From NCBI GenBank assembly GCA_031370645.1, contig JANMQV010000195.1, positions 1-10,201 on the forward strand: 10,201 nucleotides of DNA, given 5' to 3'. The translations under genes and the position numbers were made by a program. The number at the start of each line of letters is the position of its first letter. Within the stretch, counting starts at the first letter, position 1. The DNA comes from Candidatus Eiseniibacteriota bacterium (GTDB lineage Bacteria > Eisenbacteria > RBG-16-71-46 > SZUA-252). Shown here one piece after another: positions 1 to 10,201 of this stretch. Under the pieces are notes generated by a model. It saw only the letters and a list, made by a program, of their open reading frames with translations. It searched no databases and was not told the DNA's origin.

Positions 1-146
1 TCCTTCCCCTGGATGATGCGGAGATAACGCGGCCCGTTGATCTTCAGTTCGTTCAGCGTGGCGAACGCCACGAGACCGAAGAGGACGAACCCCGCGAGCG
101 CAAGAAGCGCGCTGCCGAGGAGCTGGCGCCGGATCGTGAACTTCAT
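1..146 (-). CDS. Methyl-accepting chemotaxis protein, 5' end only (runs off the window)
   Basis: ATG at 146-144 with AGGAG (160-156) upstream. Translates MKFTIRRQLLGSALLALAGFVLFGLVAFATLNELKINGPRYLRIIQGK: basic N-terminus, one TM helix, start of a periplasmic domain. Lies directly downstream of cheA-cheW. The signalling domain is not visible, so the product is inferred. Not in the ORF track. Confidence 0.75.
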   Translation of the reverse strand, partial: MKFTIRRQLLGSALLALAGFVLFGLVAFATLNELKINGPRYLRIIQGK

Positions 147-194
147 GACAACGGACTCCTTCCGTGACGCCCGGCCGCGCCGGGTCCGTGATTC

Positions 195-632
195 CTACGC
201 ATACGCCACCCGCAACACCTCTCCGAGTTCGAGTTCGAGGAGCAAGCGGTCGTGAAGAGGGAACACTCCATGAATCAATTGACGCGCGATGCCGTGCACC
301 GTCTCCGGCGCCCGCTCCCGCGACGATTCCGTCACCTGAACGACATCGCCGATTTCGTCCACCAGAAGGCTCGCGGCCGCGTCCTCGCGCCCGCGCACCA
401 CGATCGTCGCGCGATCCTCGCCGCTCACCGCGGCCGGCAGATCGAGGCAGCAGCGGAGATCGACCGCGGGGACGATGTGCCCGCGCAGATTGATGATTCC
501 GCGCACGGCCGGCGACGAGAGCGGAAGACGCGTGATCTGCTGGCGCCGGAGCACTTCCTGGACGAAGGCGATGTCGAGACCCAGGAGGTGGTCCGCCACT
601 TGAAACGTGCAGAGCAGCCGTACTTCCGCCAT
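195..632 (-). CDS. cheW: Chemotaxis coupling protein CheW (145 aa)
   Basis: Motifs LCTFQV, GLDIAFVQEVL, ITRLPLSSPAVRGIINLRGHIVPAVDLR and LLVDEIGDV; starts 3 nt after the cheA stop. Confidence 0.96.
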   Translation of the reverse strand: MAEVRLLCTFQVADHLLGLDIAFVQEVLRRQQITRLPLSSPAVRGIINLRGHIVPAVDLRCCLDLPAAVSGEDRATIVVRGREDAAASLLVDEIGDVVQVTESSRERAPETVHGIARQLIHGVFPLHDRLLLELELGEVLRVAYA

Positions 633-635
633 GGC

Positions 636-2822
636 TCAGGCCCCTTTCCCGGCGTGGGCCGGAACGAAATCGCGGCCGATGGCCGACGAACCGAGGAGTC
701 GCTCGAGGTCGAGGAGTTCCGTCACCGAACCGCGAACGACCACCGCGCCCGCGAATCCGGCGCGAGCCCCGGGCGATGCCGTGACGGCCATCCGCTCCTC
801 CACGATTTCCACGATCGACTCGACCACGAGACCGAGCGACCGGCCGCCGTGATCGTGAACGACCACCGCGAGCGGATCCCGATCACCCAGCCACTCCGCG
901 TCCGCCGACTTCGCGGAGCCGCTCAGGTCGAGAATGGCGCCGAGCGAGACGAGCGGGAGGATTCCGCCGCGGTACTGCACCATCGCGCGTTCGCCGATCC
1001 GCTCCACCAAGCGGCGCGGAATCTCTTCCAGGCGCGCGATCTGCTCTTGGGGAATGGCGACCGTCCAGCGTGCACCGGCGTGACAGAGCACGATCGTCCG
1101 AAGCGGCACCGATGGCGAGTCCGGGACAAGCTTCTGGACCGGGAGAGGAGCGCCGCCGGAGCGGACGCTGATCCCCGCGTGACGCGCCAGTCCGGGGACA
1201 TCGAGAATGAGCGCCACCGCGCCGTCGCCGAGGATCGTCGCTCCTGCGAAGACGGCGATCTGTCGAAGTTGCTCGATGAGCGGTTTGACGACGATTTCCT
1301 GCGACGCCACGATCGAATCGACCACGAGCCCTAGGGTGACGCCGTCGGCGTGAACCACGGCGATGGAGGTGGCCTCGTTCTGCCGCTCCGTGGAGGGGAA
1401 ACCCGGTACCCGGAGCACCTCCCTGAGATCGAGGAGGGGAAGAAGCCCGTCGCGATAGCGGAGCACCGGCGCGTCGAAGGCGACCGGGAGGCGAATGGCG
1501 GCCTCCGCCGCTTCGACACGGATCAGTTCGGTCAGGTTCACCTGAGGAATGGCGTAGCGCTCACCGCCGGCCGTCACGATCAGGGCCGGAACGATGGCCA
1601 GCGTGAGGGGAATTCGAATCCGCACCGCCATGCCTTGCCCAGGGCGCGATTCGACCTCGATAGCGCCGCCGATTCGCTCCACGTTGTTCCTCACGACGTC
1701 CATGCCGACGCCCCGCCCCGAAACGCTCGTCACGCGCTCGGCGGTCGAAAAGCCGGGAAGGAAGATCACGTTCGCCAAGTCGCGGTCGGACATGTGCGGC
1801 GCGCGCTCGGCCGAAATCAACTGCTGCTGGAGGGCGCGCTCGCGGATTCGGTCCAAGGGAAGCCCGGCGCCGTCATCCGTGATTTCGACGTGCACCTTTC
1901 CGCCCTCGTGGAACGCGCGGAGGAGAAGCCGCCCCTCGGCGGGCTTTCCCTTCGCGGTCCGCTCGGCCGGCGATTCGATGCCGTGATCGATCGCGTTTCG
2001 CACCAGATGCGTGATCGGATCGCGCATCGCCTCGATGATCGAGCGATCGAGCTCCGTCTCAGCACCCTCCAGGTCAAGCCGAACGCTCTTGCCGCACGAC
2101 GCGGCGACGTCGCGCGTCAGGCGGGGGAGCTTGCTCCAGAGGTTTCCGATCGCTTGCATGCGGGTCTTCATGACCTGTTCCTGAAGGTCGGTCGTCACGT
2201 GATTCAGGCGCTGCGCGGTGGCGGGAAGATCGACGGCGTTGCCCGAAGCGACTTCGAGAAGGAGCTGGTTCCGGGCGAGCACGAGCTCCCCGACGAGATT
2301 CATGAGGCGATCGAGGAGATGGACGTCGACTCGAACGCTCGATTCGACAGGGGCGGCGGATTCGGAGGACTCGACGGGGGCCGCCAACTCGGAGTTCTCG
2401 ACGGGTGCGGCCGGCTCGGGCGCCACGTCCGGCTCCCCGGCATCGAGTTGATTTAGCCGCGCGATCAGCGGCTCGTAGGTCTCGTCACCCTCCTCCTGCG
2501 TCGCGTTGATCCGCGCGAGAATGGCGCGAACCGCATCGACGAGCGCAAGGAGCGCGTTCGCGACTTCCGGCGTGTGCGCTCGCTCGCCGCTCCGCAAGCG
2601 GCCGAGGAGGTTCTCGCCCGCGTGGGTTACCGCCGCGAGCTTCGTAAATCCGAAGAAGCCGCACGTCCCCTTGATGGAGTGAACGGCGCGGAAGAGCGTG
2701 CCGATCCGCTTCAGATCGCCAGGTTCGCGCTCCAGCGCGACGAGCTCCTGCTCGACGCGTTCCGCGTTTTCGAGGCTCTCCGAGAGAAACTCCCGAAGAA
2801 TGCCTTCGTCCATCGTTCCCAT
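636..2822 (-). CDS. cheA: Chemotaxis histidine kinase CheA (Hpt, dimerisation, HATPase, two CheW-like domains)
   Basis: Hpt LFRAVHSIKG; SVRVDVHLLDRLMNLVGELVLARNQL; N box HLVRNAIDHGIE; G1 DDGAG; F box IFLPGFST; G2 SGRGVGMDVV; two CheW-like C-terminal domains. GAGAGGA precedes ATG 2822 (alternative ATG 2813). Confidence 0.97.
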   Translation of the reverse strand: MGTMDEGILREFLSESLENAERVEQELVALEREPGDLKRIGTLFRAVHSIKGTCGFFGFTKLAAVTHAGENLLGRLRSGERAHTPEVANALLALVDAVRAILARINATQEEGDETYEPLIARLNQLDAGEPDVAPEPAAPVENSELAAPVESSESAAPVESSVRVDVHLLDRLMNLVGELVLARNQLLLEVASGNAVDLPATAQRLNHVTTDLQEQVMKTRMQAIGNLWSKLPRLTRDVAASCGKSVRLDLEGAETELDRSIIEAMRDPITHLVRNAIDHGIESPAERTAKGKPAEGRLLLRAFHEGGKVHVEITDDGAGLPLDRIRERALQQQLISAERAPHMSDRDLANVIFLPGFSTAERVTSVSGRGVGMDVVRNNVERIGGAIEVESRPGQGMAVRIRIPLTLAIVPALIVTAGGERYAIPQVNLTELIRVEAAEAAIRLPVAFDAPVLRYRDGLLPLLDLREVLRVPGFPSTERQNEATSIAVVHADGVTLGLVVDSIVASQEIVVKPLIEQLRQIAVFAGATILGDGAVALILDVPGLARHAGISVRSGGAPLPVQKLVPDSPSVPLRTIVLCHAGARWTVAIPQEQIARLEEIPRRLVERIGERAMVQYRGGILPLVSLGAILDLSGSAKSADAEWLGDRDPLAVVVHDHGGRSLGLVVESIVEIVEERMAVTASPGARAGFAGAVVVRGSVTELLDLERLLGSSAIGRDFVPAHAGKGA
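2337..2411 (-). repeat. In-frame tandem repeat, 27-bp period, about 3 copies, in the CheA P1-P3 linker
   Basis: Encodes AAPVENSEL-AAPVESSES-AAPVESS; plus-strand cores tcgac(a/g)gg(g/t)gc at 2344, 2371 and 2398. Confidence 0.9.
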
Positions 2823-2957
2823 GCGGCGAATTCCTCTCGATTGGCGCGCCGAAGCGCGGAAACCCCACCTCGCGTCACCAATCGGCGCGCGGGGTGGCGT
2901 TCTTGAGCAAATCGTTGCAGGGCTAGGAGGATGCGGGCGGCAAGTGACGCGGGGAAA

Positions 2958-4502
2958 CTAGTGCTTCAGGCGGCCGAGCCAGGTCCAAGCCTGGTCCCGT
3001 TCGGGGCCGGGCGGCGCGTAGAGGAGGTACTGGCGGGCTGCTGAGATGGCTGCCTCGCGGCGCGCCGCACTCGGCTCCGCCGCCCACGCCTGGAATCGCG
3101 CCTGAGCCCACTCCCGGCGCGCGACGGCGAGCTGTTCGGGGGCGCTCTGGAGAAGCGGGATCGCCCGCTCCCACGCTTCCGACGACCGGTCGAATGCGGC
3201 GGGAGTCTTCGATTTCGCCGCCTCAAGGCTTGCGCCCTTTGCGTCGCGCATGGCGGCCGCGCCCGGGTCGGGTTTGGTGAGCGCGTTCGACAGGTTGGCC
3301 GGGGCGGGCGCGTCGCGCTCTGCGGCCGGCGCGACGTCCGTCCCAGAGATGACCGTCTCCGAGATGACCGTCCGAACGGGGACGAAGTTCGTCGTCGCCC
3401 GCTCGACCAGGCGTTCCGGCGGAGGAGCCGGCGTCGTCGCGGGCGTCGGCTTCGGAGTCGGTACCGGCTTCTTCTTCGATTGCGGCGGCGAGGCGATTGC
3501 GGCGGCGATGGCCGGCTCGGTTTTGACGGGCGCCGGAGTCTCGATCGTCGGCACATTGTTCTCGCGCGGCGCGAGATCCGGCGTCTCCACTTCGATCTGC
3601 TCGGGCTCCGGGGCCAAATCGTTGGACTCCGCCATCTGCGGAGCCGGTGCTTCCTCCGCTTCCGTTACCGGAGCGGGTGGGGCGGATCGGTCGAGGAGTT
3701 CTTCGGGCGTCGGCGCCGATGCCTTCGCGGGCGTCGCGCCCGTCGTCGCGCCCTCGACTTTCGCCGATGGGATCGCGCCATTTGGCCCGTTGTCGCGAGG
3801 ACGAAGCGTGACCCAAGCGATGCTCCCCGCCACGAGACAGCAGGCGACGGCGACGATCGCGGCGGCGCGAGGGCTGAGCCCATGCGGGGATGGGTCCTCG
3901 GCACGGCGCTGGGGCCGGACCATCGACCGGCGCGTGGGCCGCGCGGGCACCGGCGTCCCACGCGCCGGACGCTCCGGGCGAACGACCGCGGGCTCTTCGC
4001 GCATGAGTCGTTCCGCGCGCCCGACCACGTGCTCCTCACGAACCGGCGGGGCCGGCGTCTCGGCCACCGGAAGAACCGGCGCTGCCTCCACGGGAACAAC
4101 CGGTTCCGCGTGCGGCGGCGCGATCGGCTCATCCCACGTAGGAGCCGCGGAGACTTCGCGTCGCTCGGGCGCGGGCTTCTGTCTCGGCTCCGGAGTGATC
4201 TTCGCTCTGGCTTTCCGCTTCGCATCCTTCTTCGACGTCGGCTTCGTCTCCGGCACCGGAACGCGCCGCTCCACGGGGTCGGGCTGACCCAGCGAAATCG
4301 AAGCGCAGAGCTGTTGGAAGAATGCGTCGTCGGGCTCGTCGCTGAGAATGCGGACGAGCGACTCTTCCTGTGCCTCGAGCCGCGCGAATCGCTCGGTACA
4401 TTCGAGGCACTCGGAGAGATGCCGGCGAACGAGCTCGGCCGAGGCTTCGGCGAGTTCGTCGTCGAGGAAGGCGCAGAGCTGCGGCAGGGTGACGTGAATC
4501 AC
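2958..4502 (-). CDS. Zinc-binding (ZAS/zf-HC2) membrane anti-sigma factor, 514 aa
   Basis: H3-x24-H28-x3-C32-x2-C35 at the N-terminus; single TM at about aa 213-233; Pro/Ala-rich linkers either side; helical C-terminal domain. GTG start overlaps the sigma TGA stop (GTGA). Confidence 0.88.
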   Translation of the reverse strand: MIHVTLPQLCAFLDDELAEASAELVRRHLSECLECTERFARLEAQEESLVRILSDEPDDAFFQQLCASISLGQPDPVERRVPVPETKPTSKKDAKRKARAKITPEPRQKPAPERREVSAAPTWDEPIAPPHAEPVVPVEAAPVLPVAETPAPPVREEHVVGRAERLMREEPAVVRPERPARGTPVPARPTRRSMVRPQRRAEDPSPHGLSPRAAAIVAVACCLVAGSIAWVTLRPRDNGPNGAIPSAKVEGATTGATPAKASAPTPEELLDRSAPPAPVTEAEEAPAPQMAESNDLAPEPEQIEVETPDLAPRENNVPTIETPAPVKTEPAIAAAIASPPQSKKKPVPTPKPTPATTPAPPPERLVERATTNFVPVRTVISETVISGTDVAPAAERDAPAPANLSNALTKPDPGAAAMRDAKGASLEAAKSKTPAAFDRSSEAWERAIPLLQSAPEQLAVARREWAQARFQAWAAEPSAARREAAISAARQYLLYAPPGPERDQAWTWLGRLKH

Positions 4503-5077
4503 GCGGTGCCCTCGCCCTTCGCGGCGGCCTCGATGCCGCGCTGCAGCAGATACCCGCGAGCCGAGGAGAGACGCGCGAGCGCGATCACCGAGGGCTGATC
4601 GAGGAGCGTCCCGATCTGCTCGTGCGGAAGATGTTCCACGACGCGGAGGGCGAGCGCAGCCTGCTCGTCGGGCCTAAGCGCGCGGATCGCTTCCCGAATC
4701 GCGCGTTCCACGACCGCCTCTTCACGATCTTCTTCCGAGAGGTCGGCGGCGAGGTCGGGATGGACCGAGGCCACGCCGGCGTGACGCCGCGCGTACGCGA
4801 TCGAGAGATTGCGAGCGAGGTGAAGCACCCAGGGGAAGAACCGCTTCCCCTCGGGGATTCCCTTGAGCCCGAACCATGCACGGCTGAACGACTCGCGTGT
4901 GATCCCGGACGCGGCTTCCCGATCGCGCGTGAGCGCGAAGACGTGACGATAGACGGGCTTCACGTAGTGGTCGGCGAGCGCGAGAAACGCCTGACGATTC
5001 CCCTGCAACGACGAGCGCATGAGTCCCTTCTCCTCGGACTCGCTCAGCCAGGTGAACCGCGGCTCGCGGGCGCTCAT
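4499..5077 (-). CDS. ECF-type sigma-70 family RNA polymerase sigma factor (192 aa), divergent
   Basis: Region 2 (AFLALADHYVKPVYRH...FFPWVLHLARN) and region 4 (AIRALRPDEQAALALRVVEHLPHEQIGTLL...RLSSAR). ATG 5077 preferred over the track start 5140 because AAGGAGGAAGGC precedes it. Confidence 0.88.
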   Translation of the reverse strand: MSAREPRFTWLSESEEKGLMRSSLQGNRQAFLALADHYVKPVYRHVFALTRDREAASGITRESFSRAWFGLKGIPEGKRFFPWVLHLARNLSIAYARRHAGVASVHPDLAADLSEEDREEAVVERAIREAIRALRPDEQAALALRVVEHLPHEQIGTLLDQPSVIALARLSSARGYLLQRGIEAAAKGEGTA

Positions 5078-5380
5078 GCCTTCCTCCTTGTACGGTGGCC
5101 GTCTCGTCCTCCCCGGAGATGCCGGGGGGAGATGGCTCACCGGCGACTATCGGCGTAATCGAGAGCGTTCTGTGGCCCTGATCAAGGGAGCGGGCGCGGG
5201 GGAAGGGAGGCGCTTCGGTGACGCTGGCGTCTCCGAGCGGTGTCATCTTGTAAGTAATTATGGGAATACAACTTAGTCGTCGATTTCACTCCAGCGACGA
5301 GATCGCCGGGGCCTGGCGGTTACGCGGACCCTCGTCCGGGACGACGCCCGAGTCCTGCGGGTCGTCCATATCAGCCTATA

Positions 5381-5393
5381 AACAAACGAGTTA
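5381..5393 (+). promoter_or_regulatory. IHF-like binding site
   Basis: AACAAACGAGTTA matches 7 of 9 specified positions of WATCAANNNNTTR, in an AT-rich island about 30 bp upstream of a sigma54-like -24 element. Confidence 0.45.
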
Positions 5394-5420
5394 TGCGATT
5401 GTCCCCACCGCCGCATCCTG

Positions 5421-5436
5421 CGGCACGCCTCCTGCC
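5421..5436 (+). promoter_or_regulatory. Sigma54-type -24/-12 promoter candidate
   Basis: CGGCACGCCTCCTGCC versus consensus TGGCACG-N4-TTGCW; exact GG(5422-23)-N10-GC(5434-35) spacing; predicted +1 near 5447. Confidence 0.5.
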
Positions 5437-5446
5437 ATCCCTCACT

Positions 5447-5648
5447 CCTGTCCGCGGCAACGCGGAAGTGACTGCAACGGAATGAATTGGCGGGGCGTCC
5501 TCTGTATGGGGGAGAGCACTGCGGAGTCGGGGCCGCGGTGTGGTGAAGCCGAGGAGGCGAAGAGGCGTCCCGCCATCAAGTTAGGGGCCTGCGCGGCCCG
5601 CCCAGTGGTGCCTTCGAGCGCCCGGGCCGGGCTCGGCGCGGCCCCTTT
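5447..5648 (+). ncRNA. Candidate structured non-coding RNA or leader RNA of unknown family
   Basis: Hairpin TCCGCG-GCAA-CGCGGA (5451-5466, GNRA loop); stem 5488-5503/5561-5575; inner stem 5516-5524/5533-5541; terminal stem 5583-5594/5636-5646 followed by a short T run. G-U pairs form on the + strand only. No convincing ORF. Confidence 0.4.
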
Positions 5649-5703
5649 CGTCATCTATATAGTACGGAGGCGCACCGCAAGCAATCGCCGGGCCTAATTC
5701 CGG

Positions 5704-5733
5704 TTGACCCTCAAAGCACCCGTCGAGTACCTT
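5704..5733 (+). promoter_or_regulatory. Sigma70-type promoter of the atp operon
   Basis: TTGACC (5704-5709), 18 nt spacer, TACCTT (5728-5733), about 90 bp upstream of the first atp gene. Confidence 0.6.
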
Positions 5734-5823
5734 TCCTGGCTCGAGGTCGTCACCTCGACTCGATGCGTCCTTTCGAACCGCGCTCATCCGAGCGCGGCGG
5801 GTGTCAGCGACGCGGAGGCAACC

Positions 5824-6054
5824 GTGACCGAGAAGGAACCGAACAAGGTCACGGGTTGGCGCCAAATCGGAGTCTTGTCGGCGATCCCGTTCATCCTCGC
5901 TCTCGCACCGATCATCGGGTACTTCCTCGGGACCTATCTCGATAAGAAGTTCCGAACCACGCCCTGGCTCTCGTACGTGCTGCTCGGGCTCGGTTTCGTG
6001 GCGGGTGTGCGCGAGACGATCAACTTGGTGAAGCTGGCTCAGCGGGAGGACTAG
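5824..6054 (+). CDS. atpZ: AtpZ / ATPase gene 1 family membrane protein (76 aa)
   Basis: GGAGG (5814-5818) then GTG 5824; two TM helices with the family pattern IIGYFLGTYLDKKFRTTPW...LLGLGFVAG; first gene of the atp operon. Confidence 0.88.
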   Translation: MTEKEPNKVTGWRQIGVLSAIPFILALAPIIGYFLGTYLDKKFRTTPWLSYVLLGLGFVAGVRETINLVKLAQRED

Positions 6055-6087
6055 ATCCTGCTCCGTACCACCGACAACTCGACGAAC

Positions 6088-7506
6088 TTGCTCGCGCGCT
6101 CCCTTCGCGTGTCGTGGGTCATGTCCGCGGCGTTCGCCGCGATCTGGCTCCCCGCGAATCCGAACGCCGCGATCTCGCTCGCCGCGGGACAGATCCTGTC
6201 GGCGCTCAACTTCTTCTTTCTCGCCCGGCTTGTGAAACTCTTCACAGGTTCGGCGCGGATGGAAGATCGCGGAACCGCGGAATCGATGCGCGGGAAGGGC
6301 CTCCTTCTCGGCGGCGCGAAGCTCGCCGTCGTCTACGGCGGCGCGTTCGCCGTGACCCGCTGGCGCGGCATCGAATACCTCCCGCTCATGCTCGGTCTCT
6401 CCATGCCGCTCCTCGCCATCTTCCTCAAATCGATCATGCTGGCCCTTCCGGCCGGCGCCGCGAAATTCTCGCGGCGGGCAACTTCAACGGCCTCTCCCTC
6501 GCGGAGCCAGGCTAAGCTCGCCGCGTCCATTCTCCTCGTGGGCGCGCTTACGCTCCCGCTCGCGCTTCTTGGGCCGGCTCGCGCGTTCGCGAACGACCCG
6601 CCCGCCGCCGCGACCGCCGCCGAAGCGGGCCACGCAGACGGGAGCGCCGCCGCGACGACCGCCGAAGCGGGACAGGGCGAGGCCGCGCACGGGGAAGAAG
6701 GAAAGGGCGAAAGCGGCGAAGCGCACCTTCCGAATTGGATCACCATCGCGAACGACTACGCGCCGAACAATCCAGTCGTTCACTGGATGCACGAGAACGA
6801 ATTCCTCGTCTTCGCCTGGCTCGCCGGCGCGATCTTCCTGATTCTCGTGAAGGTCGTCATGAAGAGATCCGCGCCCGTGCCCGGCCACCTGCAGAACGCC
6901 ATCGAGTGGATCGTCGAGAGCATGGAGGACGTCTGCGGCGGGATGCTCGGAAAGCATCTTCCGAAGTACTTCCCCTTCATCATGGCGATCTTCTTCTACA
7001 TCCTCTTCATGAACCTGATCGGCATCATCCCCGGCTTCAAGTCCTCGACCTCCAACGTCGACGTCACGCTCGCCCTGGCGCTCGTGACGTTCCTCTCGGT
7101 GCAGGTTTCGGGAATGATCAATCTCGGGCCGCTCGGCTACCTCGACCACCTTGCCGGCTCGCCGCGCGACGTGATCGGGTTCTGCATGCTCCCCGTCATG
7201 ATCCCGGTGCACGTGCTGGGCGAACTCGTGAAGCCGGTCAGCCTCTCGTGCCGTCTTTTCGGCAACATCTTCGGCGAAGACACGCTCATCGTCGTCTTCG
7301 TCGGCGTCGCGGCGTTCTGCCTGAAGGCAAGCCTCCTGGCGCTCGCGGTCCCGCCAATGGCGGGAATCACCGCGCTCTTCATGCTGCTCCAGACGCTCAC
7401 CGCCATCGTGCAGGCGCTGATCTTCTCGCTCCTGACGACCGTCTACCTCTACATGATGATTCCACACGAATCGCATGCGCACGAGGAGGGCGGCCATGCT
7501 CACTGA
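6088..7506 (+). CDS. atpB: F0 subunit a fused C-terminally to an AtpI-like membrane domain; true start may be 6055 or 6058
   Basis: aa ~215-460 are subunit a (PGHLQNAIE, FFYILFMNLIGIIPG, TSNVDVTLALA, KPVSLSCRLFGN with the essential Arg, VQALIFSLLTTVY). aa 1-120 carry four hydrophobic segments with G-x-ILSALNFFFL, AKLAV and MLGLS, like AtpI, at the atpI position. No stop between the two parts. Confidence 0.92.
   Translation: MLARSLRVSWVMSAAFAAIWLPANPNAAISLAAGQILSALNFFFLARLVKLFTGSARMEDRGTAESMRGKGLLLGGAKLAVVYGGAFAVTRWRGIEYLPLMLGLSMPLLAIFLKSIMLALPAGAAKFSRRATSTASPSRSQAKLAASILLVGALTLPLALLGPARAFANDPPAAATAAEAGHADGSAAATTAEAGQGEAAHGEEGKGESGEAHLPNWITIANDYAPNNPVVHWMHENEFLVFAWLAGAIFLILVKVVMKRSAPVPGHLQNAIEWIVESMEDVCGGMLGKHLPKYFPFIMAIFFYILFMNLIGIIPGFKSSTSNVDVTLALALVTFLSVQVSGMINLGPLGYLDHLAGSPRDVIGFCMLPVMIPVHVLGELVKPVSLSCRLFGNIFGEDTLIVVFVGVAAFCLKASLLALAVPPMAGITALFMLLQTLTAIVQALIFSLLTTVYLYMMIPHESHAHEEGGHAH
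6604..6671 (+). repeat. Imperfect direct repeat (26 bp x2, 42-bp period) in the linker before subunit a
   Basis: gccgccgcgaccgccgccgaagcggg (6604-6629) and gccgccgcgacgaccgccgaagcggg (6646-6671), encoding AAATAAEAG and AAATTAEAG. Confidence 0.8.
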
Positions 7507-7554
7507 TGTTGAAAACCCTGTGTCCCACGCGTCACGTCTCCAGGAGGTGAACCA

Positions 7555-7788
7555 ATGAATTTCGCCGCTACTCTCGGTCTTGCGCTTCCGATCGGCATCG
7601 GTCTCGCCGCCATCGGCTCCGGAATCGGCCTCGGCTTCATGGGCCGCGGTGCCATGGAGGCCATGGGTCGTCAGCCCGAAGTGCTTCCGAAGATCCAGGT
7701 CGCGATGATCATCGGCTTCGGCTTCATCGAAGCCCTCACGATCTACGCATTCGTCACCATGTTCATTCTTTCGGGAAAGATTCAGTAA
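7555..7788 (+). CDS. atpE: F0 subunit c (77 aa), H+-type signature
   Basis: GSGIGLG glycine motif, RQPE loop, ion-binding Glu in FIEALTIY; strong SD AGGAGGTG upstream. Confidence 0.98.
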   Translation: MNFAATLGLALPIGIGLAAIGSGIGLGFMGRGAMEAMGRQPEVLPKIQVAMIIGFGFIEALTIYAFVTMFILSGKIQ

Positions 7789-7801
7789 GGCGACGGAGGC
7801 A

Positions 7802-7826
7802 GCGTCCGGTCCCCTAGGCCGGACGC
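7802..7826 (+). other. Intergenic stem-loop between atpE and atpF
   Basis: GCGTCCGGTC (7802-7811) pairs with GGCCGGACGC (7817-7826): 10 bp with one G-U, 5-nt loop, no U tract. Confidence 0.65.
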
Positions 7827-7848
7827 CCCCGCGGCCCGAGGCCACGAC

Positions 7849-8337
7849 ATGAATCTCATTCACTGGAATCAGCTGCTCGCGCACGCGATCTCGTTCGTCA
7901 TCTTCTTCTTCCTCGTGCGCGGCGCCTTCATGGCGATCATCTACCCGCCCATGCAGGAGCGCCGCGAGCGGATCAAGGCGGAATACGAGCGCATCGAGCA
8001 GGAGAAGAAGGCCGTCGCGGACATGAAGTCGCAGTACGAGGGCCATCTCAAGCGGATCGAGGCCGAGAGCCGCGATCGGATCCAGGCGGCGGTGGCGGAA
8101 GGCCAGCGCATCGGGACCGAATTGCGCGATCTCGCACGGAAGGAAGCGCAGGAGACGCTGACCCGCGCCCGCGAGGAGATCGGACTCGAGCGCGACAAGG
8201 CTCGGATCACGCTTCGCGACGACGTCGTGAAACTGGCGATGGATATCGCGAGCAAGGTGGTTCATGAAGAGCTGAACGCCGAGAAACACAAGAAGTTGGT
8301 CGACGGCTTCCTCAAGGAAGTGGAGTCGGCGCGGTGA
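7849..8337 (+). CDS. atpF: F0 subunit b (162 aa)
   Basis: N-terminal TM, YPPMQERRERI, long charged coiled coil, C-terminal LAMDIASKVV...HKKLVDGFL; GAGG upstream. Confidence 0.96.
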   Translation: MNLIHWNQLLAHAISFVIFFFLVRGAFMAIIYPPMQERRERIKAEYERIEQEKKAVADMKSQYEGHLKRIEAESRDRIQAAVAEGQRIGTELRDLARKEAQETLTRAREEIGLERDKARITLRDDVVKLAMDIASKVVHEELNAEKHKKLVDGFLKEVESAR

Positions 8338-8885
8338 TCTCGGTCAGCCTCTCGCGCCGCTACGCGCGGGCCCTTCTGTCGCTGTCACAGCGCCGGGGCG
8401 ATTTGGAACGCACTCAGGGCGAGCTTCGCGAGTTGGCGGCGCTTTTCGCCCGGGACGTTCGCGTGCGGCGCTTCTTCGAGACGCCGAACATCGCGCGTTC
8501 GGAGAAGCTCGAGTTCCTGGAGGAGCGGTGGAGGCCGAAGTTCGGCGCCGCCGTGTATGGCCTCCTGATGGTGCTGTTGCGGCGCCGGCGGCTGGATCAT
8601 CTGGTCAGCATCGCGGAGGAGTTTCACAAACTTTCGGAGCAGGCCCAGGGAATCGTGCGCGCCACCGTGCGGAGCGCCGTGCCCCTCGACGAGGCGCAGG
8701 CGGACCGCTTGGTCGCCGTGCTCGGCCGCCGCTCCGGACTTCGAGTCGTGCTCACGAGAGAGACCGACGCCGGCGTCATCGGCGGCGCGGTCGTCTCCAT
8801 GGATCATCAAGTCATCGACGGCACCCTCGCCACGGAGTTCTGGCGCATCCGGCGTCAGCTCCTCCAGACGCGGGTCCACGGTTAA
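8334..8885 (+). CDS. atpH: F1 subunit delta (183 aa)
   Basis: SRRYARAL, ATVRSAVPL, DAGVIGGAVV and VIDGT motifs; GTG start overlaps the atpF stop (GTGA). Confidence 0.95.
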   Translation: MISVSLSRRYARALLSLSQRRGDLERTQGELRELAALFARDVRVRRFFETPNIARSEKLEFLEERWRPKFGAAVYGLLMVLLRRRRLDHLVSIAEEFHKLSEQAQGIVRATVRSAVPLDEAQADRLVAVLGRRSGLRVVLTRETDAGVIGGAVVSMDHQVIDGTLATEFWRIRRQLLQTRVHG

Positions 8886-8901
8886 CGGTTAGGGGAGCGG
8901 C

Positions 8902-10201
8902 ATGGCCTTCAAGCCCGAGGAAGTCAGTTCAGTACTCGAGCAGGAACTCGAGAAATACGAGTCCCGGCTCAAGATGGAAAGCGTCGGCACGGTGCTCCAG
9001 ACCGGGGACGGTATCGCCCGCGTCTGGGGGCTGGACGACGCGATGTCGGGCGAGCTGGTGCTTTTCCCGGGCGACGTCACCGGCGTCGTGCTGAACCTGG
9101 AAGAGGACAACGTCGGCGTCGCGCTCTTCGGCTCCGCGGAGCAGATCAAGCAGGGCGACACGGTACGCCGCACCGGGAAACTCGCCTCCGTTCCGGTCGG
9201 CGACGCGATGGCCGGCCGGGTGATCAACGCGATCGGACTCCCCATCGACGGCAAGGGCCCCATCGTCACCGACAAGTCGCGTCCGCTCGAGGGTGGCGCT
9301 CCCGGCGTGGTGGATCGGCAGCCCGTGAATCAGCCGGTGCAGACCGGCCTCAAGGCCATCGACTCGATGATTCCGATCGGACGCGGCCAGCGCGAGCTCA
9401 TCATCGGCGACCGCCAGACGGGGAAGACCGCCGTCGCGATCGACATGATCATCAATCAGAAGGGCACCGGCATCCGCTGCATCTACGTCGCCGTCGGACA
9501 AAAAGATTACACGGTCGCGAAGGTCGTGAAGATTCTCGAAGACCGCGGCGCCATGGAATTCACCACCGTCGTCGCGGCCGGCGCTTCCGAATCGGCGCCG
9601 CTTCAGTACATCGCGCCCTTCACCGGTTGTTCGATCGGCGAGGACGTCCGCGACCGCGGCGGCCACGCGCTCGTGATCTACGACGATCTCTCGAAGCACG
9701 CGGCCGCGTACCGCCAGCTATCGCTTCTGCTCCGCCGTCCGCCGGGCCGCGAGGCGTTCCCCGGAGACGTCTTCTATCTCCACTCGCGCCTCCTCGAGCG
9801 CGCCGCCAAACTGAACGATCAGTTGGGCGCGGGCTCGCTCACGGCCATTCCGATCATCGAAACGCAGGCCGGCGACGTCTCGTCCTACATTCCGACGAAC
9901 GTCATCTCGATCACGGACGGACAGATCTTCCTCGAGACCGACCTTTTCTACTCGGGCGTTCGCCCGGCCATCAACGTCGGCATTTCGGTTTCGCGCGTCG
10001 GCGGCAAGGCGCAGACGAAGGCCATGAAAAAGGTGGCCGGCCGTCTCCGTCTCGACCTCGCGCAGTACCGCGAATTGGCGGCCTTCTCGCAGTTCGGCTC
10101 CGACCTCGACAAGGCGACGCAGGAACAGCTGACGCGCGGCGAGCGGATGGTGGAACTCCTGAAGCAGGGCCAGTACCAGCCGCTTTCGGTGGAGCGCCAG
10201 G
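8902..10201 (+). CDS. atpA: F1 subunit alpha, 3' truncated by the window
   Basis: GGGGAG then ATG 8902: [12 protein letters not shown]...GDGIARV...LNLEEDNVG; Walker A GDRQTGKT at 9406-9429; [45 protein letters not shown]. Frame open to the window end. Not in the ORF track. Confidence 0.99.

Follow-up and report, generated by a model that had tools for sequence, protein, structure and literature searches.

The product of atpI is the least understood of those encoded in atp operons: it is usually present in less than stoichiometric amounts, and while some species can do without it, others need it for c-ring assembly. Elsewhere in bioenergetics, Bradyrhizobium japonicum FbcH is a precursor of cytochromes b and c1 that is split at an internal signal peptide, as demonstrated experimentally, and subunit a of ATP synthase is itself made as a precursor in organelles, where yeast Atp6 is processed by Atp23 and the presequence of chloroplast subunit IV is cleaved off. 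In the relevant part of PMC4383579, Atp23 is described as an F0 assembly factor and UncI as a protein that supports c-ring formation, and a passage of PMC8904574 states that the c-ring of Acetobacterium woodii requires AtpI. Here we describe a locus of a Candidatus Eiseniibacteriota bacterium in which atpI and atpB, the gene for subunit a, form one conserved gene (positions 6088-7506, plus strand), joined through a segment that corresponds to the signal peptide of unfused subunit a proteins. The window, meaning the whole stretch of DNA analysed, comprises 10,201 nucleotides (GenBank assembly GCA_031370645.1, contig JANMQV010000195.1, positions 1 to 10,201, forward strand).

The fused gene is a single stop-free frame of 472 codons plus a stop codon, and residues are numbered here in that reading. 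Its N-terminal part matches ATP-synt_I (PF03899) over residues 6-105 (E 1.8e-6, 28.7 bits against the Pfam cut-off of 25.1), and when residues 1-168 are scanned alone the score rises to 31.8 bits, again above 25.1. A six-frame search of the genome with PF03899 returned one match, the fused gene itself (33.3 bits), and no separate AtpI gene. The C-terminal part matches ATP-synt_A (PF00119) over residues 241-454 (E 3e-50, 171.5 bits, cut-off 33.9), and the protein also passes TIGR01131 (126.3 bits, cut-off 102.6); again one match, and no second subunit a, was found in the genome search. An earlier sequence-only reading of this DNA had assigned the two halves to AtpI and subunit a in one reading frame, and both the assignments and the fusion are borne out by these matches. 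In other respects the operon is an ordinary F-type one, in the order atpZ, atpI::atpB, atpE, atpF, atpH, atpA.

The fusion is real and conserved, and an assembly error can be discounted. In two studies, Logan contigs span 6144-6930 without a gap: record 1 of study X1 covers 5700-6930 and record 14 of study X5 covers 6144-6930, and since X1 is possibly the source sample, X5 is taken as the independent one. These contigs show neither a stop nor a frameshift at the junction (6440-6600), for which a check of reads had been proposed. A metatranscriptome (X15) covers 6989-7799 only, in three short contigs (two at 95-99% identity and one at 90-95%), and does not reach the junction. Within the window's own family, all 24 other genomes match in one frame with no stop inside, a few of these matches being cut by contig ends or split into two alignments of the same frame, and a wider scan found the same single frame in 39 of 40 genomes of the family. 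Across the phylum, 197 of 206 genomes, all of one class, have a match, and about 97 of the 150 places listed are stop-free by hand count from query residue 30 or earlier to residue 465 or later. These fused places belong to families f1 and f9, together with parts of f15 and f17; the phylum tallies include an unpublished genome (G099), which adds one f17 genome and bears on no other result. Related genomes, which the sequence-only reading had named as a possible source of refutation, therefore support the fusion.

Protein searches give the same picture. The best 120 homologues from a search of 5.8 billion proteins are 58-99% identical to the window protein and 396-527 residues long, and among the matches listed 112 of the 120 align over at least 90% of the query in one chain. 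Relatives at 60-81% identity carry the NCBI label Candidatus Eisenbacteria, and fused forms are kept down to 34-40% identity. The precomputed Pfam column assigns PF03899 to just 10 of the 120 listed proteins, and because it mostly lacks this family, fused proteins of 450-500 residues are annotated as 'subunit A'. A search with the AtpI profile over 1.84 billion representatives gave 734 matches at E <= 0.001. Most of the best 150 of these 734 are stand-alone proteins, 134 being at most 186 residues long; six are full-length fusions of 453-474 residues that all carry ATP-synt_A, and several entries of 190-350 residues are fragments whose alignment to the window protein extends past AtpI. One of the fused representatives, P0226, belongs to family f17. 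With 61-73% G+C, the window has many long spurious frames, so that the open frame might be put down to an indel from assembly or sequencing, or to a pseudogene, since long frames can arise by chance at such a high G+C content. We give this explanation a negligible probability: independent contigs run over the junction without gaps, more than 100 proteins and about 97 genomes keep the frame although the linker differs in length, and both halves have invariant residues.

The anatomy of the protein was examined with an AlphaFold2 model built on an alignment of 80 sequences, over which residue conservation was also scored. The AtpI domain (residues 1-120, 6088..6447) has four predicted transmembrane helices, modelled at 2-20, 25-57, 61-91, and 97-119 with a predicted local distance difference test score (pLDDT) of 90-97 (at its widest 85-97), and its invariant residues are G34, V49, K50, T53, K78, Y83, and G103. 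A basic polar linker follows (residues 121-143, 6448..6516), which is predicted to be disordered and is a putative n-region; its part from residue 129 to 143 (6472-6516) has an Arg-Arg pair, then a Thr/Ser/Ala-rich run, and closes with Ala-Lys. K143 is the last residue of the linker, and from L144 an uncharged hydrophobic stretch begins, whose core (residues 144-162, 6517..6573) is the strongest hydropathy peak between the two domains (2.23) and is predicted to cross the membrane from inside to outside. AlphaFold2 places a fifth helix at 140-160 (pLDDT about 67) and predicts disorder at 128-138 (pLDDT below 50) and 162-212, and the order of segments seen in hydropathy agrees with the model. 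A short c-region (residues 163-168, 6574..6591) comprises Pro163 and Ala166-Phe167-Ala168, with a predicted signal peptidase I cut at 6591/6592, before Asn169 (6592). These positions are numbered exactly as the sequence-only reading had them. Beyond them lies a low-complexity tail of 45 residues (169-213, 6592..6726; pLDDT below 50), predicted to be periplasmic and rich in Ala, Gly, Glu, and His; over the relatives its composition is 28% A, 16% G, 12% E, and 10% H, and its length varies from 7 to 80 residues (median 49) with the frame always kept.

The tail runs into a conserved N-terminal segment of subunit a (residues 213-238, 6724..6801), also predicted to be periplasmic, which adjoins the first membrane helix of subunit a. 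It contains the invariant residues P215, N216, P226, W233, and N237 and two modelled helices at 217-224 and 229-236 (pLDDT 66-92). The subunit a core (residues 241-454, 6808..7449) contains R389 (7252-7254), which is invariant in the 80 sequences and lies inside an invariant block of 14 residues; we take it to be the penultimate-helix arginine facing the c-ring, equivalent to E. coli Arg210. The protein ends in a conserved His-rich tail (residues 459-472, with the stop codon 7462..7506), in which P459 and H460 are invariant and E461, H463, and H472 are conserved in at least 90% of the sequences. Subunit a thus has His/Glu-rich tails at both ends, a variable periplasmic one and a conserved C-terminal one; a role as proton antenna or in metal binding would be speculation. 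Solved subunit a chains align with residues 219-465 only, and no solved structure covering residues 1-215 was found. Comparison of the AtpI model with solved folds gave nothing at E <= 0.001 in Foldseek and Z scores of at most 7.7 in VIA-align, all to generic helical hairpins, and a search of the ESM Atlas with residues 1-215 gave no usable match.

Positive charges are found at the N terminus, in the loop connecting helices 2 and 3, and behind helix 4, from which, by the positive-inside rule, we infer that both ends of the AtpI domain are cytoplasmic. The fifth segment would therefore have to cross outward, which matches the periplasmic N terminus of subunit a. The topology of four helices plus an outward fifth segment, as the sequence-only reading had drawn it, thus fits both the charge distribution and the predicted helices.

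The origin of the fifth segment becomes apparent from relatives in which the two genes are separate. In sister families of Eisenbacteria, unfused subunit a begins with a basic n-region, a hydrophobic core, a small-x-small motif, and a His/acid-rich tract. By eye, the signal peptide and the tract are seen in genomes G029, G030, G037, G038, G035, G031, and G036; the start of subunit a is less clear in G028, and G040 and G033 have no signal peptide start. In Krumholzibacteriota, all eight loci examined have a subunit a with signal peptide and a separate atpI frame just upstream, and no such start was found in subunit a of Armatimonadota. The fifth segment of the fused protein corresponds in position to the h-region of these N-terminal signal peptides. 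In addition, positions 26-342 of NF009953, a subunit A model of 346 positions, align with residues 168-470 and so start at the predicted cut, although the window protein, which scores 140.9 bits where 460 are required, falls outside this long-form equivalog. Compared with the unfused proteins, the window protein has the same order of parts from the basic region on, through the conserved motif ahead of helix 1 to the subunit a core; the difference is that in the unfused genomes atpI ends in a stop codon or lies in another frame and the signal peptide is N-terminal. Since the unfused relatives carry an N-terminal signal peptide, the fusion put AtpI in front of a pre-existing subunit a precursor. 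The segment itself is built like a Sec signal peptide: a basic n-region and a hydrophobic h-region precede a c-region that contains a helix breaker and has small residues at -3 and -1, so the earlier description of the fifth segment as signal-peptide-like holds in both anatomy and position.

Together these features suggest how the protein may have arisen and how it may be processed. The two genes would have merged through loss of the atpI stop codon, and the product would be inserted as a membrane protein of about eleven helices, running from four AtpI helices through a basic loop, the outward fifth segment, and the disordered, acidic, His-rich tail into subunit a. The fifth segment would be the former N-terminal signal peptide of subunit a, now internal. 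In the window's family, signal peptidase I may still recognise this segment and cut after Ala168, which would free AtpI, with the old signal peptide as its fifth helix, and mature subunit a starting at Asn169. AtpI and subunit a would then be made in equal numbers (1:1) and at one place in the membrane, and AtpI could help in building the c-ring beside the stator, a role suggested by analogy with other bacteria. For the window protein and its family, cleavage after Ala168 is in our judgement the best reading, to which we give somewhat better than an even chance on the strength of the sequence patterns described below.

Signal peptidase I follows the Ala-X-Ala rule, as stated in a section of PMC9360617. 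The pattern was examined in 120 of 121 proteins (one lacks the anchor motif), taking the residues before the first charged or amide residue past the core and asking for A, G, or S at -1 and A, G, S, V, or T at -3, with 1000 shuffles within each stretch as the null. The rule is obeyed by 95 of the 120 proteins, compared with 25.6 ± 4.4 in the shuffles (maximum 40), and by 73 of 97 distinct stretches; a proline lies within -8 to -2 in 101 of the 120 proteins, whose uncharged stretch has a median of 19 residues. At the genome loci of family f1, 16 of 18 distinct stretches obey the rule, where the shuffles give 4.3 ± 1.7 and none of the 1000 reaches 16. These figures describe a conserved, position-specific pattern and not independent events. 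The genome also encodes two Peptidase_S26 proteins, homologues of signal peptidase I, which shows the means for cutting only.

Several observations weigh against cleavage. In the other fused clade, mostly f9, 14 of 51 distinct stretches obey the rule, exactly as expected by chance (shuffled mean 14.0, with 544 of the 1000 shuffles reaching this number). The conserved A-x-A site that the sequence-only reading had anticipated is thus present in family f1 and does not extend to the other fused clade, so that cleavage should not be generalised to all of the fusions. Fusions of the f9 type may well stay uncut, with the segment possibly a plain membrane anchor there, and this is the clade with most of the fused forms sampled. 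A looser test, accepting any site within 20 residues that obeys the rule, is at chance in both groups (17 of 17 versus 13.5 in f1, 47 of 51 versus 43.4 in the others); such a test is uninformative in sequences rich in Ala, Gly, and Ser, and the positional test is informative for family f1 only. Moreover, the test sequences are kin, so the shuffle counts overstate their independence. The uncharged stretch of the window protein, 25 residues from K143 to Ala168, is long for a signal peptide, and R129, R130, K143, A145, and A146 are each conserved in at least 90% of the sequences, which exceeds what an n-region needs.

The same observations feed an alternative in which the fusion escapes cleavage and the fifth segment serves for good as a transmembrane linker, its sole task being to lead the chain from the cytoplasmic end of AtpI to the periplasmic start of subunit a. 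The flexible tail would then keep AtpI tethered, and AtpI would act as a built-in assembly factor or count as a new stoichiometric component of the stator. The topology demands a connecting helix with or without a cut, uncharged stretches with medians of 19-21 residues are enough to span the membrane, and a disordered tail of 7-80 residues would give the tethered domain freedom. In the f9-like clade, where small-x-small is at chance level, the hydrophobic segment has conserved aromatic pairs typical of anchors, and the conserved cytoplasmic linker suggests a function beyond targeting. A mere linker, however, leaves unexplained why f1 keeps the -3/-1 residues and the proline while the segment drifts. 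In some relatives just 7-17 residues separate the segment from the conserved beginning of subunit a, and AlphaFold2 gives no confident packing of AtpI on subunit a (predicted template modelling score 0.39). We regard permanent tethering as the main rival and a serious possibility, though the less probable one for the window's family. Cleavage after Ala168 has a further consequence for the phylum if it is combined with the result for the sister clade: the window protein would be a true polyprotein whose signal peptide is kept as an AtpI helix, the sister fused clade would be uncut, and the phylum would hold unfused, fused and cut, and fused and uncut forms. This fuller picture comes, in our estimate, a little short of an even chance.

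Compared with known systems, the AtpI part resembles stand-alone AtpI/UncI (PF03899), the first gene of many atp operons, in its family match, its four helices, and its place directly upstream of subunit a; it differs in lacking a stop, in running into subunit a, and in that it would carry a fifth helix. FbcH would be the closest mechanistic precedent. It likewise combines a polytopic protein, an internal signal peptide, and a second protein of a bioenergetic complex in one frame, but it belongs to another complex, its upstream part is a subunit where that of the window protein is an assembly factor, and its cleavage is established where ours is inferred. The organellar subunit a precursors share the removal of an N-terminal extension during assembly; their presequences, in contrast, are short, are not signal peptidase I signal peptides, and carry no AtpI domain. 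Finally, dual Sec-Tat membrane proteins with an internal twin-arginine motif (PMC5449189 and PMC3471235) have an internal targeting signal after transmembrane helices, and the window's family has a conserved Arg-Arg pair in its linker. The part that comes after the signal-like segment of the window protein, however, consists of a disordered tail and five further membrane helices in place of a folded cofactor domain. A twin-arginine translocation (Tat) signal was rejected, since R129-R130 lie 13 residues before the hydrophobic core and not at its boundary, and since the pair is absent from the other fused clade.

The history of the fusion was followed in a phylogeny of the subunit a core that comprises 113 rows and has Armatimonadota as its root; one short-match row and two duplicates were left out. 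All fused forms but one group in a single clade of 84 rows, of which 71 are fused, 11 break off at a contig end, and 2 are unfused. These proportions are biased towards fused forms, as the loci were gathered through similarity to two fused queries; at least four changes of state are needed over the 101 scored rows. The window's family (L001-L020) sits on a subunit a branch of 1.4 changes per column with a support of 100, far longer than those of its neighbours, which reflects either fast evolution after the family split or an ATP synthase with another history. Four loci (L046, L048, L079, and L084) on contigs labelled Methylomirabilota, Verrucomicrobiia, Acidiferrales, and Saccharimonadaceae have fused genes that nest in the Eisenbacteria fused clade, and the labels of these bins look doubtful. 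A fused representative of 474 residues (P0192) is nearest to Krumholzibacteriota, where the genomes of eight species (L037-L044) are all unfused with atpI in another frame; it stems either from an independent fusion or from a frameshifted metagenome contig. A fusion within Krumholzibacteriota was not counted on P0192 alone, given the eight unfused species genomes out of eight.

Whether subunit a is made from the whole frame depends on where translation starts. An internal start before the hydrophobic segment would supply most of subunit a and reduce the fusion to a minor read-through by-product of the loss of a stop codon. The organism does use strong Shine-Dalgarno sites, with GGAGG ahead of atpZ, of the fused gene, and of atpE, and there is a GGAG at 6503-6506 and an in-frame GTG at 6538, within the hydrophobic core. 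This GTG is not conserved, however, its relatives having Ala, and no start codon stands at a usable distance after the GGAG. Moreover, 25 of 74 fused frames have no ATG, GTG, or TTG between the end of AtpI and the core, with ATG present in 9 of 74, and seven of the eight loci of the window's genus (L001-L005, L007, and L008) have no start codon there at all. Ribosomes initiating upstream would in any case still make the fusion, as there is no stop codon between. We therefore consider an internal start very improbable as the main source of subunit a.

The start of the fused gene itself probably lies upstream of TTG 6088, where the sequence-only reading had placed it. TTG 6088 and ATG 6121 are not conserved among relatives, whereas the peptide upstream of both is. 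In the window, the block 6045..6060 (plus strand) contains GGAGG (6045-6049), the atpZ stop codon TAG (6052-6054), one codon, and CTG (6058-6060). GGAGG-N8-CTG is found at 11 of 19 loci of the family and GGAGG-N10-CTG at three, and four have ATG at the homologous place. Because this arrangement is conserved and the two later codons are not, CTG 6058 is the likely start, a non-canonical one, and the predicted product would have 482 residues. Public gene calls begin these proteins at later, non-conserved codons (461-residue versions).

The preceding gene is atpZ-like (PF09527, ATPase_gene1, E 3.7e-12; 5824..6054, plus strand), with a probable GTG start at 5824 that has GGAGG (5814-5818) 5 nucleotides ahead of it. 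Read from this codon it encodes a 76-residue AtpZ-like protein that contains the entire PF09527 match; the ORF 5704-6054 is probably over-extended at its 5' end, and TIGR02230 matches weakly, under its cut-off. A triple fusion including atpZ was rejected, as none of 82 AtpZ matches shares a frame with subunit a, and the long open frames upstream in some relatives are due to chance. Downstream on the plus strand follow atpE (subunit c, PF00137; 7555-7788), with GGAGG 7 nucleotides before its ATG at 7555, atpF (subunit b, PF00430; 7849-8337), atpH (delta, PF00213; 8334-8885), and atpA (alpha, PF00006 and flanking domains), which runs from 8902 to the end of the window (10200). Subunit c has Glu59 within Phe-Ile-Glu-Ala-Leu-Thr and a Gly-rich motif without Gln in its first helix, and judged by Na+-binding signatures it looks proton-coupled. 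Upstream and divergent from the operon, on the minus strand, lie genes for CheA (636-2822), a zf-HC2 anti-sigma-like protein (2958-4502), and an extracytoplasmic function (ECF) sigma factor (4499-5140). The ORF 5260-5697 (145 codons) has no family match and an odd Cys/Arg/Ser-rich translation, and is probably a non-coding leader or the promoter region of the atp operon.

In summary, atpI and atpB of these Eisenbacteria form a conserved fusion of two known ATP-synthase components, joined via a retained signal peptide and previously unremarked; literature searches, which covered few subscription journals, found neither an AtpI-subunit a fusion nor work on the ATP synthase of Eisenbacteria. The persistence of the fusion across deeply diverged lineages is a Rosetta-stone argument that AtpI works beside subunit a, and that these bacteria tolerate or benefit from a 1:1 dose of AtpI. 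Should the chain be cut, then to judge by the literature searches it would be an undescribed bacterial ATP-synthase polyprotein, and likewise an undescribed case of a signal peptide reused as a helix of another protein. The natural series of unfused forms, fused forms with the cleavage pattern, and fused forms without it offers ground for studying the role of AtpI.

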